Positions 40,327 to 55,236 of a stretch of 64,000 bases of DNA are shown in pieces (the stretch's first letter is position 1; every line of letters starts with the position of its first letter). The notes beneath the pieces were generated by a model, which was given only the letters and a program-made list of their open reading frames with translations, was not told where the DNA came from and made no database searches. The translations under genes were made by a program, and so were the position numbers. The DNA is from Escherichia phage vB_EcoM_3HA11. Location: sequence record MN342150; one strand, given 5' to 3'.

Positions 40327-40356
40327 CCTTCGCATACATTGCGGAGGTATTTTCTT

Positions 40357-41151
40357 ATGGCCATTCTAAAACTTGGCAACCGAGGTTCTGAAGTCAAAGC
40401 GCTTCAACAAAGCCTCAACAAAATCGGTTTCTCCCTTACAGCCGATGGCATATTTGGTAAAGCAACAGAGAATGCTGTCAAATCCGTTCAGGCAGGTGCT
40501 GGATTGGTTATTGATGGTATTGCTGGGCCAAAGACCTTCTATGCTATCCGCAACTCTGGAGACGCTCATCAGGAACATCTGACCGAAGCGGACTTGGTTG
40601 ACGCAGCACGTGAACTTGGTGTTGAGCTGGCCAGTATGAAAGCTGTGAATCAGGTAGAATCCCGTGGCACGGGTTTTACCAAAACCGGCAAGATCAAAAC
40701 TCTGTTTGAGCGCCACATCATGTACAAAAAGGTGACGGCCAAATTCGGACAAGCAAGAGCCAATGCTCTGTACCAACTCTACCCAACATTGGTTAACCCC
40801 AATTCTGGCGGGTATATCGGCGGAGACGCGGAGTTGGAACGCCTTCAGGGTGCAATCGCCCTTGACGAGGACTGCGCTTACGAGAGTGCTTCCTACGGCC
40901 TATTCCAGATCATGGGGTTCAACTGCCAAATCTGTGGATATCCAAATGCCAAAGAGATGTTCACTGATTTCCTGACTGGTGAACGCGCTCATCTTCTGGC
41001 ATTTGTCAAGTTCATCAAGGCTGATGCCAATATGTGGAAAGCCCTGAAGAACAAGAATTGGGCCGAGTTTGCTCGTCGGTACAATGGTCCGGCATATGCG
41101 AAAAACCAGTATGATACTAAACTGGCGGCAGCATACAAGAGTTTCTGTTAA
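40357..41151 (+). CDS. endolysin: peptidoglycan-binding domain + N-acetylmuramidase-like catalytic domain
   Basis: RBS GGAGG. N-terminal LKLGNRGSEVKALQQSLNKIGF ... DGIFGKATENAVKSVQ is a PG_binding_1 repeat; C-terminal region (LFQIMGFN, YNGPAYAKNQYDTKL) resembles the muramidase family. Confidence 0.7.
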   Translation: MAILKLGNRGSEVKALQQSLNKIGFSLTADGIFGKATENAVKSVQAGAGLVIDGIAGPKTFYAIRNSGDAHQEHLTEADLVDAARELGVELASMKAVNQVESRGTGFTKTGKIKTLFERHIMYKKVTAKFGQARANALYQLYPTLVNPNSGGYIGGDAELERLQGAIALDEDCAYESASYGLFQIMGFNCQICGYPNAKEMFTDFLTGERAHLLAFVKFIKADANMWKALKNKNWAEFARRYNGPAYAKNQYDTKLAAAYKSFC

Positions 41152-47015: not shown

Positions 47016-47396
47016 TCAATTTGTCCGTTTCAACCATATCGTGTCTGTTATCGGCTCTGGGTTGTTGACCACATAGAACGTGATGGTTACGCCCAGAGAA
47101 TGATAATCGTCAGACAATGACACATCAACTGATTGTATCTCCGCTCTCGGTTCAAATAAAGCAATCGCGTCTTCAACTTTGTTTTTAACATCAACCTGAA
47201 TTGTGGGATTCGTATTTTCCCCCAGCATGGTATACAGCCCAGCCCCGATACTTGGGTATGTCGGCCAATCCCCAACTGTTGTCATCACGATATTTCGTAC
47301 GGATTGCAACACGGCATAGACACCTGTTTTCTTTGTGACATCTTTGGTGACCGGATGCATGCCAAACTTCAGGTCAATGTCCTTGTACTCTTTCAT
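47016..47396 (-). CDS. 25: baseplate wedge protein gp25-like (GPW/gp25 family)
   Basis: ATG 47396 with SD AAGGGG (the track start at 47429 is GTG). YKDIDLKF ... VRNIVMTTVGDWPTYPSIGAGL ... EPRAEIQSVDV ... ITFYVVNNPEP parallels T4 gp25. Confidence 0.75.
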   Translation of the reverse strand: MKEYKDIDLKFGMHPVTKDVTKKTGVYAVLQSVRNIVMTTVGDWPTYPSIGAGLYTMLGENTNPTIQVDVKNKVEDAIALFEPRAEIQSVDVSLSDDYHSLGVTITFYVVNNPEPITDTIWLKRTN

Positions 47397-47460
47397 GTTA
47401 ATCCCCTTTGGATATTGCCTCTCCGGCACGAGAGGGCATTATCTACCCTCGCCAGTGTAA

Positions 47461-49086
47461 TCATGCGTCTTTACCACCAAAGTTGCCGCCATTATCCTCC
47501 AGTTCCGGTTTTATATCAATTGGACCAGGACCAGAAGTAGATACTGGAGTTGCCCCAGCGCGTGATGCAGCACGACCAGCACCTTCAGCATATTTGATGT
47601 TGCCTTCAATAGTCTGCGCCACCGACAACTTATCACAAACTATTTCACTAGCCAGTATTTTAGGCACTTTTAAAGTATTGGAAACTTCCAACATCTCACA
47701 GATGATACGCATCACGTTTTGCGCTTGAATTTCGGCCAGCTGTGAAAATTTCATCAACGCCGTGCCAGCAACCACATTGGAGTAGTTCGATGAATGTAGA
47801 TGATAGACCTCACCTGTCTTGCGCTGAACTTCAGTCCCACCAATGGTCAGGTTGTGATCACGACCAACATAGTAACGTTTGTCAAACATCGTCAGATCAT
47901 AATGATCTTTGACTGATTTATTGACCACGTCCCCGTCAGGAAGCATCTGCTTATAAGACCCCGAGGAGTGCATCCAATGGAGACGTTCCCCGCCTGGTGT
48001 GTCATCAACCTCCATAATATGCCCCGACCGAGATGCCATGACATTGTTGTAAGGATAACGAGACCCGCCAGCAGAAGGAACCGACACCTCTCCTGTGTTA
48101 TCAATATCTTGAACACGCCCAGAAGGAGGCGGAGTTTCCTGAACTTTTGGTGTACGATCAGGGATTGGCTCAGACCATTTACCATTTTGTTGCGCAGGAG
48201 CCGCCGATGCTGTCGTAGCAGGACCAGGCCAACGATAACCCAACACAGATGAGCGGCTGAAGCGACTCACCTTCACAGAATCTGATTGGTTGCCTCCAAT
48301 ACACCAAACATAATTGGCATCGAATTTCTGCACGAACGCAACGTGTCCGAATGTTGGGTTGTTGCCACGCCGGAATACAACAACAGCGCCGTAACGGGGT
48401 TCTGACAAAGGGGAACCCCATTGCAAATATGAACGAGCCAAAGCCGAGCGCGTTGAAGTGTATCCTGCTTGGATCAACACCCATCCCACAAATGAAGCGC
48501 ACCAGCTGACTTCATCTTCCGAAGCGCCCAAAGATGTTGTCTTGTGATATTCCAAAATCCTTGGGTTATTATTGAATTTGCCAGAATATTCTTTGACACC
48601 TAATTCACCACGAGCCACTGTCATCCATTTCTCGGGATCATAACCGTCCACAGGCGGTTGAGGTTCTGGTTGTGGGTCGTCTTCAATCTTGACAGGAACA
48701 TTTTCAACGGCGTTATATTTCTGTCTTTCTATAGATTGAACAACCTGGCCCAGCGCCAACGGGTTTGTGTCTGAACCATCCGTTGGTGTCGCCGCTGGCC
48801 AAACCCAGGCGATACGAATATTTTGGTATGCTTCATCCAAAGCAAATCCCATAACATCCGACCCGACTGTAATACCCGTTGGAGACCAGCCTAAACCTGC
48901 CGAGGAGGCGTTAGATGCTGGCATGAGCATTTTACCCCAAGGCAATAATTCGGTAGGTAAGAGAGTGGTATCTTCCGTGTGTACACCATAGATGCGCACA
49001 GCGACGCGCCCGTTCTGGTCGGGATCATTCACGTCTTCAACGCGCCCGTAAAACCAACGCATGTTGTCTAACATATTGAAACCCAT
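47461..49086 (-). CDS. 5: baseplate hub/cell-puncturing protein gp5-like with CHAP peptidase domain
   Basis: N-terminal OB-fold WFYGRVEDVNDPDQNGRVAVRIYGVH typical of gp5/VgrG; central Cys/His region (SWCASFVGWVLIQAGY ... GHVAFV) fits a CHAP domain rather than T4-type lysozyme. Confidence 0.7.
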   Translation of the reverse strand: MGFNMLDNMRWFYGRVEDVNDPDQNGRVAVRIYGVHTEDTTLLPTELLPWGKMLMPASNASSAGLGWSPTGITVGSDVMGFALDEAYQNIRIAWVWPAATPTDGSDTNPLALGQVVQSIERQKYNAVENVPVKIEDDPQPEPQPPVDGYDPEKWMTVARGELGVKEYSGKFNNNPRILEYHKTTSLGASEDEVSWCASFVGWVLIQAGYTSTRSALARSYLQWGSPLSEPRYGAVVVFRRGNNPTFGHVAFVQKFDANYVWCIGGNQSDSVKVSRFSRSSVLGYRWPGPATTASAAPAQQNGKWSEPIPDRTPKVQETPPPSGRVQDIDNTGEVSVPSAGGSRYPYNNVMASRSGHIMEVDDTPGGERLHWMHSSGSYKQMLPDGDVVNKSVKDHYDLTMFDKRYYVGRDHNLTIGGTEVQRKTGEVYHLHSSNYSNVVAGTALMKFSQLAEIQAQNVMRIICEMLEVSNTLKVPKILASEIVCDKLSVAQTIEGNIKYAEGAGRAASRAGATPVSTSGPGPIDIKPELEDNGGNFGGKDA

Positions 49087-49097: not shown

Positions 49098-49422
49098 AAT
49101 CATGGGTTATTTATGGCGGGGATTTGAAATCTGTCGAATAGTAATATTATAGGAAGCTCTGCTTCCGTTCAACTTTATTCTTTTCGTTTCTACTCGCTGA
49201 AGCTCGTAACACCGCCTTGACAGGCAGTCCCATTCCAATGCCATGGAGGCATAAAGGCGAGGAAAATACTGTACACCTCAGAACATGCGTAGAAAAGGAT
49301 TATTTTTGCTTCAAAACAAATTCAAACCCCAATTCACACAACACTTACTTCAGCAACAACGGTGTTATAGCAATTTAAGGTTAAATGTTCCTGTCTTAAC
49401 CTATAAAACAGGTAAGCAAAGA

Positions 49423-49450
49423 AAACCCCACATTACGTGGGGTTGGAAGA
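49423..49450 (-). terminator. rho-independent terminator (minus strand)
   Basis: AACCCCACGTAATGTGGGGTTTTCTTTG on the minus strand, downstream of the 50397..49594 gene. Confidence 0.55.
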
Positions 49451-49593
49451 TTTCTTGGACAAACGTATCTTTAGTGTCTCTGTTAGCAAATCAAGATGCC
49501 AAGGCATCGACTCGCTTATTTCAAATATGCTATAGCCATGTGCCTTTAATTCGTCACACATCACAAAGTAGGAGAGTAAATCAATTTCAAAAA

Positions 49594-50397
49594 TTAAATG
49601 AAAATTTCAGTGACACTGTTAAATTTGACTTCATGTTCTTTCCCACACGAAGGACATTTAATTTTCGTCGCGTAACGGATACGAGGAATCTTTTTAAAGA
49701 AATCGTCGGATATATCTTGAACAATCTCAGATTCAATATTTTCCCCCACCCATTTAACAAATTCATCTTTGACACGTTGACGTTCTTTAGCAACATCAGG
49801 TGCTATGCCAGGCTCTGCCGGATTCTCTACTTTCCAAACCTGACCATCATCGTCATACAAACAATCAATAAATGTCGCGATCATTTGCTCCACAGATGAT
49901 GCTTCGTTGAGCACTGAGGCGTCCGAGAAGGACGGTTGACGCATCTTGATGTGATAGCCACCAGGGAGGTCAAATGTTTCCCTGAAGCCTTCTGGGGACA
50001 CGCATTTCACTTGGTTGAGGGGGATCGGTAAAACAAGTTCTTGACCACATTCTTTAAGGCCAGAAACTGGTTCTTCACCTTCATTTGTGTCGGATGGAAC
50101 TTTGTTGTTACATTTGTATCGTATCTTCATGACCTCGCCGATAGATATACAGCGCATCTTTAAAAATACTTCTTCAGTAACACCGATTGGCAGTTTACTA
50201 AAGGGAACCCCAGCGTCAACACAACTATCAAACAGTTGCTCCAGCGTCGCTACACGTTCACTCATAGGAGTGTTCGGATCAGCAACCTGAAGTAGCATGG
50301 TCTGTTGCCCAGCTGTGAAAGCGCGGTATTTAATCACCGTCGGCCAGAAATCACTTTTGTGTGTTCTCTCAGTTTTGGGCAATGATGGTAAATTCAT
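49594..50397 (-). CDS. late structural protein, probably baseplate/tail-associated, with C-terminal zinc ribbon
   Basis: Start at internal ATG 50397 with SD GGAG and a perfect late promoter TATAAATA about 29 nt upstream; C-terminal CPSCGKEHEV. Upstream of gene 5 where T4 has baseplate genes. Confidence 0.55.
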   Translation of the reverse strand: MNLPSLPKTERTHKSDFWPTVIKYRAFTAGQQTMLLQVADPNTPMSERVATLEQLFDSCVDAGVPFSKLPIGVTEEVFLKMRCISIGEVMKIRYKCNNKVPSDTNEGEEPVSGLKECGQELVLPIPLNQVKCVSPEGFRETFDLPGGYHIKMRQPSFSDASVLNEASSVEQMIATFIDCLYDDDGQVWKVENPAEPGIAPDVAKERQRVKDEFVKWVGENIESEIVQDISDDFFKKIPRIRYATKIKCPSCGKEHEVKFNSVTEIFI

Positions 50398-50425
50398 AAT
50401 GTATCTCCACGGTATATTGTAACCA

Positions 50426-50433
50426 TATTTATA
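50426..50433 (-). promoter_or_regulatory. T4-type late promoter TATAAATA
   Basis: Perfect consensus on the minus strand, correctly spaced to the SD and ATG at 50397. Confidence 0.6.
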
Positions 50434-50446
50434 ATGAGGACCGAAA

Positions 50447-50971
50447 ATGCACGCGTTCTGTTTCAGTAAAGTTGGAGAACAACTTACCATTAATTATCCG
50501 GATACAAATACGGATTTCTTTGTATTGCTAACGGATTTCGCAAATAAATTGGGGATCAAGAATATCGCCATGACTGTGGACGATATGAAATTTGGTCGTC
50601 TGGGTGTAAAAGATTTATTGAATTACGGATTCAACGTAATCATCGTCGATCAGACATACAGCCCAATTGACGAGGAAGATGTTATTCCAGTTTGGGTTCA
50701 ACGAGACATAAACACTCTGGATAAGCATTATCCCGATTGTGTCATCATTGGCGAATTAATACCATATTTTCATAAACGTCGTCGGCTTGAATCAATTAAA
50801 AGTTATTTTCAAGATAGCGATGACGGATATAAAATGGATGTCCTTACGAGCGGTTGGGTTGTGAAGAATACCACAGGCAATGCCGACCGAATTACTTCCC
50901 GTCTTTATGAATATGTTAAAGAACGGGATTATGAACTGGAGAACAATAATGCCAAACGTAGAACGCGCTGA
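50447..50971 (+). CDS. hypothetical protein (174 aa)
   Basis: SD GAGGA; divergent from the late gene. Confidence 0.5.
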   Translation: MHAFCFSKVGEQLTINYPDTNTDFFVLLTDFANKLGIKNIAMTVDDMKFGRLGVKDLLNYGFNVIIVDQTYSPIDEEDVIPVWVQRDINTLDKHYPDCVIIGELIPYFHKRRRLESIKSYFQDSDDGYKMDVLTSGWVVKNTTGNADRITSRLYEYVKERDYELENNNAKRRTR

Positions 50972-55228: not shown

Positions 55229-55236
55229 TATTTATA
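55229..55236 (-). promoter_or_regulatory. T4-type late promoter TATAAATA
   Basis: Perfect consensus on the minus strand upstream of the 55194 start; overlaps the RBS region of the divergent + gene. Confidence 0.5.

Follow-up and report, generated by a model that had tools for sequence, protein, structure and literature searches.

A TIGR02594 cysteine peptidase domain in place of lysozyme in the gp5-like spike protein of Escherichia phage vB_EcoM_3HA11

In phage T4, the central spike protein gp5 (structures 1K28, 1WTH and 5IV5) carries a GH24 lysozyme between two linkers, with an N-terminal OB domain before it and a C-terminal beta-helix behind it, and is encoded in a baseplate-hub gene context; its OB domain reportedly docks on gp27 (a finding attributed to Kanamaru, 2002), and cleavage separates the lysozyme part from the beta-helix part. 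A spike of this architecture with a peptidase instead of the lysozyme has been known since 2011, when Kutter et al. (Virol J 8:430, section 'Baseplate Lysozyme'; PMC3184105) described a 537-amino-acid gp5 homologue of phage CBA120 that is without the usual lysozyme and bears a putative CHAP domain of the TIGR02594/NLPC_P60 superfamily (AA 150-282) between T4-gp5-like flanks (AA 3-109 and 334-437). Here we analysed the corresponding gene of Escherichia phage vB_EcoM_3HA11 in a window of 64,000 nucleotides (the whole stretch of DNA examined, from sequence record MN342150). The spike of 3HA11 shows no difference of substance from CBA120 gp5 (97% identity over 537 amino acids, with a 100% identical peptidase domain), and to the 2011 description we add a fold model of high confidence, the structural neighbours, an analysis of conservation and the wider distribution.

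The gene corresponds to an open reading frame (ORF) of 541 codons exactly at 47461..49086 on the minus strand, and residue numbers below refer to this 541-amino-acid ORF as listed. A protein of Salmonella phage vB_SenM_UTK0005 matches its product at 100% identity, and Vi01_076 does so at 99.8%, as do the orthologues from dozens of genomes of Kuttervirus (Ackermannviridae); thus, the window is part of a Vi01/CBA120-like Kuttervirus genome. PHROG 430, the gp5 family, matches residues 1-504 (E = 1.5e-157). The upstream ATG at 49086 (MGFNM...) is not conserved in Taipeivirus or Aglimvirinae; across genera, conservation is limited to the ATG at 49074 (MLDNMRW), where homologues including those of CBA120 and Marshall begin, so that the real gp5 start is probably 49074 rather than the listed 49086.

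47461..49086, minus strand: gp5-type central spike/baseplate hub gene (Pfam, PHROG 430, identity to Vi01_076 and CBA120)
47461..49074, minus strand: probable real coding sequence of the spike gene, 537 amino acids, with the start placed from homologues

The first-pass annotation, made from the letters of the DNA, had proposed a gp5-like cell-puncturing protein with a gp5-like N-terminal OB-fold. The latter was borne out by a Pfam match to Gp5_OB (PF06714) at residues 39-98 (E = 5e-10, 40.2 bits against a cut-off of 25) and by T4 gp5 structures (1k28, 1wth, 1pdl/5iv5), which aligned only to residues 4-87 and 338-436 (E about 1e-28) and skipped the middle of the protein. At the other end, a family profile of the C-terminus aligned to T4 gp5 385-490, the start of the triple-stranded beta-helix (E = 2e-17), and this was the only match of the C-terminal 212 residues in Pfam and PDB profile searches. 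Since Pfam, NCBIfam, PHROG and the T4 gp5 alignments together give the order OB, linker, enzyme, linker, needle, the predicted layout of the spike is the T4 gp5 topology with another enzyme cassette. The segments are listed with, where relevant, the predicted local distance difference test score (pLDDT) of the AlphaFold2 models.

48793..49068, minus strand: N-terminal OB-fold domain, residues about 7-98 (Gp5_OB; alignment with T4 gp5 structures at residues 4-87)
48628..48792, minus strand: linker 1, residues 99-153, a short helix and then a Pro/Glu-rich stretch, of low pLDDT and low conservation
48229..48627, minus strand: TIGR02594/CHAP (NlpC/P60 superfamily) cysteine peptidase domain, residues 154-286
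48076..48228, minus strand: linker 2, residues 287-337, Pro/Ser/Ala-rich, pLDDT about 30, the least conserved segment
47746..48075, minus strand: gp5C-like segment, residues 338-447, aligned with T4 gp5 384-477 and homologous to the beginning of the T4 triple-stranded beta-helix
47464..47745, minus strand: family-specific C-terminal part of about 94 residues, with the motif ...GATPxSxxGPGxIxI..L.DNGGNF at its end (alignments A1 and A3)

The terminal motif GATPxSxxGPGxIxI..L.DNGGNF is strongly conserved (columns about 770-852 of alignment A1). Six of the 18 homologues aligned, those of 605-617 amino acids (including Serratia phage 3M and Erwinia phage phiEa2809), carry a further extension of about 70 residues that ends in ...SNGSxWExM.

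The middle of the protein had been read as a CHAP peptidase instead of a T4-type lysozyme, on the strength of a Cys...His arrangement. Both motifs occur in the protein, SWCASFVGW spanning residues 194-202 and GHVAFV residues 247-252, and domain annotation with Pfam placed CHAP (PF05257) above its curated cut-off at residues 191-266 (E = 3.4e-10, 40.7 bits against 26), while no lysozyme family of Pfam matched the 541-amino-acid protein at E<=0.1. The CHAP-type assignment was thereby confirmed, and it was refined by NCBIfam, in which TIGR02594 covers residues 154-286 (E = 8.1e-39, 133 bits against a cut-off of 70.55); these Pfam and NCBIfam domain matches lie far beyond chance. The AlphaFold2 model of residues 140-300 was confident (mean pLDDT 89.1, predicted template modelling score 0.85) and gave the domain a predicted papain-like alpha+beta fold. 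Foldseek agreed with the NlpC/P60-CHAP fold: the structural matches of the domain include MepS, Tae3 and CHAP lysins, and lysozymes are absent from the Foldseek and other structural match list. The lysozyme fold with its Glu/Asp catalytic pair, which would mark a GH24/T4-type phage lysozyme (PF00959), was thus not found. In the position held in T4 by the GH24 lysozyme, the spike carries a papain-like cysteine peptidase, a TIGR02594 member within the NlpC/P60-CHAP superfamily.

We explored conservation in two alignments, one of 18 spike homologues (A1) and one of 27 TIGR02594 domains (A2). W195, C196, H248 and G264-G265-N266-Q267 were invariant in all 18 spike homologues, and H248 and the GGNQ motif in all 27 TIGR02594 domains, so that the Cys/His pair anticipated from the letters is found intact. 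A profile of the 27 domains matched NlpC/P60 DL-endopeptidases in the PDB (CwlO, Tn916 Orf17-like) as well as Tae3, an effector of type VI secretion systems (T6SS); in these alignments the WC... and GHV... motifs coincide with the catalytic Cys and His of the CwlO/Tn916 Orf17-like hydrolases, His248 falling on GHVG of CwlO. In the model of residues 140-300, Asn266 lies at the end of the strand that pairs in a hairpin with the His strand. The predicted active site consists of Cys196, His248 and, probably, Asn266.

48499..48501, minus strand: codon of Cys196, predicted nucleophile at the N-terminus of a helix (from residue 195), invariant in the 18 spike homologues
48343..48345, minus strand: codon of His248, predicted general base at the start of a beta-strand (at residue 247), invariant in the 18 homologues and the 27 domains
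48289..48291, minus strand: codon of Asn266 in the invariant GGNQ, candidate third residue of the triad, invariant in both alignments

Moreover, the enzyme was the best conserved segment in every Ackermannviridae comparison (identity 78-92%; the OB domain reached 53-90% and the C-terminal end 40-80%). This degree of conservation, together with the invariant catalytic residues, argues for an active enzyme under purifying selection.

The gene context and the virion data place this domain on the tail. The gp5 gene is flanked by gp26-like and gp25-like baseplate genes, the latter annotated as such in Vi01, Marshall and CBA120, and an endolysin gene with a muramidase domain lies elsewhere in the window.

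49594..50490, minus strand: gp26-like baseplate hub gene, upstream (Pfam T4_baseplate, E = 1.9e-51; PHROG 150)
47016..47429, minus strand: gp25-like baseplate wedge/sheath-initiator gene, directly downstream (Pfam GPW_gp25, E = 2.5e-9; PHROG 261)
40339..41151, plus strand: endolysin, PG_binding_1 (E = 3e-16) and N-acetylmuramidase PF11860 (Muramidase, E = 3.6e-58)

A protein 99.8% identical to the 3HA11 spike was found in CsCl-purified Sajous1 virions (20 spectra), a study that lists the same endolysin as 'endolysin N-acetylmuramidase' (PMC10892097), and Pickard's virion proteome included the ViI orthologue, as noted in PMC3184105. The lysozyme on the T4 spike and the T4 endolysin are paralogues (PMC3184105); unlike this pair, the spike peptidase and the muramidase endolysin of 3HA11 are unrelated. 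Since the phage has this separate endolysin, the spike enzyme is not its lysis enzyme, and the baseplate context, the presence in virions and the separate endolysin together best support a virion-borne, spike-mounted peptidoglycan peptidase. The proposal of a gp5-like cell-puncturing protein thus stands on T4-gp5-like flanks, baseplate neighbours and the occurrence of orthologues in virions, and we consider it highly probable that the protein is the gp5 orthologue, the central spike and cell-puncturing device, with a TIGR02594 cysteine peptidase replacing the lysozyme.

Several points weigh against this reading or limit its reach. The last 94 residues or so have no relative of known structure in the Pfam and PDB profile searches with the C-terminal 212 residues. 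The AlphaFold2 monomer of the full-length protein was poor (mean pLDDT 50), with confidence confined to the OB domain, whose beta-strands reached 75-84, and the peptidase domain; because of this score the needle, the trimer and the position of the enzyme domain have no reliable model, and the full-length model was not used for needle or domain packing. The predicted triad C196/H248/N266 is drawn from conservation and predicted secondary structure. In the literature searched we found no enzymatic assay of the spike protein or of any TIGR02594 member, nor any work on the biochemistry or structure of gp5 or the baseplate in Ackermannviridae; genetic evidence shows that a TIGR02594 T6SS effector contributes to the lytic killing of E. 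coli (PMC13340143). Acinetobacter baumannii Tse4 was rejected as a characterised TIGR02594 precedent, its peptidase domain being Zn-binding and ShyA/LytM-like. Finally, bond specificity cannot be read from the modelled fold, because the superfamily includes MurNAc-L-Ala (N-acetylmuramic acid-L-alanine) amidases, DD-endopeptidases and LD-carboxypeptidases.

A possible course of events is as follows. The spike gene would be expressed late, and its product would trimerise and be built into the baseplate hub; sheath contraction would then drive the needle through the outer membrane, so that the peptidase domains could reach the periplasm and locally cut peptidoglycan stem peptides, opening a hole in the murein for the tail tube. 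Lysis at the end of infection would fall to the separate and unrelated muramidase endolysin, a glycosidase. The structural neighbours favour a gamma-D-Glu-meso-diaminopimelate (mDAP) endopeptidase, and we tentatively regard this bond as the most likely target, at a confidence that stays short of even. T4 blocks superinfection through Spackle, an inhibitor of the gp5 lysozyme. A rather doubtful further idea is that the change from lysozyme to peptidase is more than a mere cassette exchange and could alter entry rules and phage-phage competition: the spike would escape lysozyme-directed exclusion of the Spackle type, and, as in the Tae-Tai pairs of T6SS, Kutterviruses might encode a protein of their own, a Tai-like immunity or exclusion factor, directed at the TIGR02594 domain.

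Two other readings keep the architecture and change the bond. The domain could be an N-acetylmuramoyl-L-alanine amidase that strips whole stem peptides off the glycan, as several CHAP domains do, which we hold to be unlikely given that gamma-D-Glu-diamino-acid endopeptidases (Acd24020, LytE, CwlO, YkfC-like) lead both the structural and the profile matches. Equally unlikely in our estimate, it could cut the mDAP-D-Ala (4-3) cross-link or trim stems as a DD-endopeptidase or LD-carboxypeptidase like MepS, Tae2 or Tae3; matches of this kind score slightly below the DL-endopeptidases.

More radical departures fit the data far less. That the domain is a catalytically dead spacer, a pseudoenzyme kept for spike geometry only, would agree with the activity being a prediction and with the statement, in a passage of PMC11948020, that some contractile-tail phages manage without a spike enzyme; however, dead domains normally lose their catalytic residues, and here Cys196, His248 and GGNQ are invariant in a domain conserved more strongly across four genera than any other part of the protein, which makes a pseudoenzyme very improbable. 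It is just as improbable that the protein is an endolysin or lysis accessory rather than an entry enzyme. In Pseudomonas siphophages, TIGR02594 proteins that stand alone carry an endolysin annotation (PMC5418858), and ORF207 of Vibrio phage ICP1 joins PG_binding_1 to CHAP, but the 3HA11 domain is fused between a gp5 OB domain and a gp5C needle, its gene lies in a baseplate cluster behind a late-promoter-like box, the protein occurs in virions, and another part of the window encodes a canonical muramidase endolysin. The spike-mounted peptidase accordingly remains our preferred reading.

The upstream box belongs to a small set of T4-type late-promoter-like sequences. The box CATAAATA, 33 nt upstream of the ATG at 49074, is invariant in seven phages of four genera, and three of the four YATAAATA matches in the window sit 28-36 nt upstream of the starts of baseplate genes.

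49108..49115, minus strand: CATAAATA, T4-type late-promoter-like box of gp5, one of three (C/T)ATAAATA boxes ahead of baseplate-gene starts
50426..50433, minus strand: (C/T)ATAAATA box upstream of the start of the gp26-like hub gene
55229..55236, minus strand: (C/T)ATAAATA box upstream of the start of the baseplate tail-tube gene

The total number of YATAAATA matches is not above chance (4 against 4.55 expected), so the promoter reading rests on position. The phage encodes gp33 and gp55 homologues, with which a T4-type late promoter fits, and these positions suggest that Kuttervirus has promoters of this type; late promoters had not been identified in 2011 (Kutter et al., PMC3184105). The region upstream of gp6 contains an invariant GCTAAATA in place of (C/T)ATAAATA.

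The gap of about 520 bp between the gp26-like gene and gp5 has 73-76% DNA identity between genera and contains a nearly invariant non-coding core, with a conserved block at about 49120..49300. Directly after the gp26-like gene comes a small ORF, unannotated here and annotated as a 49-amino-acid hypothetical protein in AG3, Ds9CZ and AV101, whose stop codon is overlapped by an intrinsic terminator; the terminator stem covaries between genera (AACCCCAC/GTGGGGTT versus AATCCCGC/GCGGGATT). Within the conserved block lies a 46-nt motif with a predicted structure of two hairpins and a pseudoknot.

49433..49564, minus strand: small unannotated ORF, 43 amino acids from GTG, conserved in the family
49424..49444: intrinsic terminator overlapping the stop codon of the small ORF
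49209..49254, minus strand: 46-nt motif UUAUGCCUCCAUGGCAUUGGAAUGGGACUGCCUGUCAAGGCGGUGU, upstream of gp5
About 133817..133862 of Vi01 NC_015296 (L013 36818..36863), minus strand: second copy of the motif, in the sense of gp6

A covariance model found exactly two copies of the motif in a whole Kuttervirus genome, and both precede baseplate genes (about 115-180 nt upstream of gp5 and gp6), the second one in Vi01 being sense-oriented and about 115-165 nt upstream of gp6, a gene of the baseplate wedge. The structure of two hairpins, with a pseudoknot from loop to downstream sequence, was 100% paired over 160 cells (10 distinct sequences, both copies, four genera), against 22-52% in slid controls, although it was derived from the same 10 sequences that score it and few independent substitution events underlie it. 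Five motif pairs showed compensatory double changes among the 10 distinct sequences, and in both Taipeivirus copies C-G replaces A-U at one pseudoknot pair. Over the window, no Rfam family passed its gathering threshold, the only hit being a sub-threshold isrJ (E = 0.57) on the terminator, and ARAGORN found no tRNA. When IMG/VR was scanned with a pattern and the covariance model, full-length matches of 65-73 bits came only from contigs of about 150-160 kb with two copies and from one contig of 9.8 kb; shorter contigs, not of Ackermannviridae size, gave only matches of 16-27 bits, seeded by the search pattern itself. We therefore regard the motif as a candidate new phage RNA motif; because it sits upstream of the late-promoter-like box, it would be a small RNA of its own or else belong to a longer leader that starts at a promoter further upstream. 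The literature searched held nothing relevant on Ackermannviridae transcriptomics.

Two observations arose beside these searches. Records OR844942.1 and OR844944.1 ('Enterococcus phage Efm 3-10') hold a 49-nt Ackermannviridae motif core at 94-96% identity, an unexpected occurrence that suggests contamination or chimeric assembly. Outside the window, the Vi01 RefSeq record has no annotated feature over about 4.1 kb between Vi01_178 and Vi01_179 (NC_015296 134831..138942; L013 37832..41943).

Beyond CBA120, the same fusion was present in about 280 phage records of Kuttervirus, Taipeivirus, Agtrevirus, Limestonevirus and relatives (Ackermannviridae). These records, and some unrelated proteins such as ICP1 ORF207, carry the label 'tail lysozyme' even though the enzyme is a cysteine peptidase, which matters for phage-enzyme mining and for reasoning on 'lysis from without', at a modest practical value. 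ICP1 ORF207 itself (L004 2252..2968), whose record note cites similarity to the Vi01 gp5 protein, was set aside: with PG_binding_1 and CHAP and no OB domain, it is more likely an endolysin-type protein. Metagenomic proteins with a gp5 OB domain (P0026, P0029, P0045, P0051, P0052) bear other cassettes, namely Peptidase_M15_3/M15_4 and phage lysozymes, and P0026, in which an SLT transglycosylase and a CHAP domain precede the trimerisation domain of the gp5 C-terminus, would be a spike with two enzymes. Since M15 peptidases, lysozymes and SLT with CHAP all occur among gp5-OB proteins, modular enzyme exchange on gp5-like spikes is the rule.

A 2017 review counted a single virion-associated lysin of Gram-negative phages shown to be an endopeptidase, phi6 gp5 (PMC5380687), and we found no later endopeptidase assay for such lysins in the literature searched. 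Demonstrated activity of the spike domain would thus be a long-predicted second case, apparently the first for a tailed phage; it would overturn nothing, cassette exchange being already visible in database matches.

With respect to T4 gp5, then, the OB domain, the place of an enzyme between two linkers, the homology to the start of the beta-helix and the baseplate context are common, and the differences are the cysteine peptidase and the distal 94 or so residues, which cannot be aligned with the T4 protein. Among the more distant systems are Pootjesviridae proteins, gp121 of Sinorhizobium phage phiM9 and the 'baseplate hub + tail lysozyme' of Agrobacterium phage Atu_ph04, which unite Gp5_OB and CHAP/TIGR02594 in one protein and whose peptidase domains are 38-42% identical to that of 3HA11 (the phiM9 database record already notes NLPC_P60 similarity); they differ in being only about 290 amino acids long and in lacking the gp5C beta-helix segment. 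The structural matches also include machines that attack Gram-positive cells, the diffocin CD1368 hub-hydrolase (8v3w_H), the CHAP/C51 hub of Staphylococcus phage 812 (9euf_E/9eum) and the Andhra gp10 tail-tip lysin (8ej5). These are structurally documented NlpC/P60 or CHAP enzymes at the hub or tail tip, but they sit on other carrier proteins, face a thick Gram-positive wall and have no gp5-type OB and beta-helix frame. The T6SS amidase effectors Tae1/Tse1, Tae3 and Tae4 belong to the same superfamily and are likewise put into the Gram-negative periplasm by a contractile spike, and Stenotrophomonas effectors encoded next to VgrG fall in the same TIGR02594 family as the 3HA11 domain; whereas these effectors are separate cargo with immunity partners, the 3HA11 peptidase is built into the spike.

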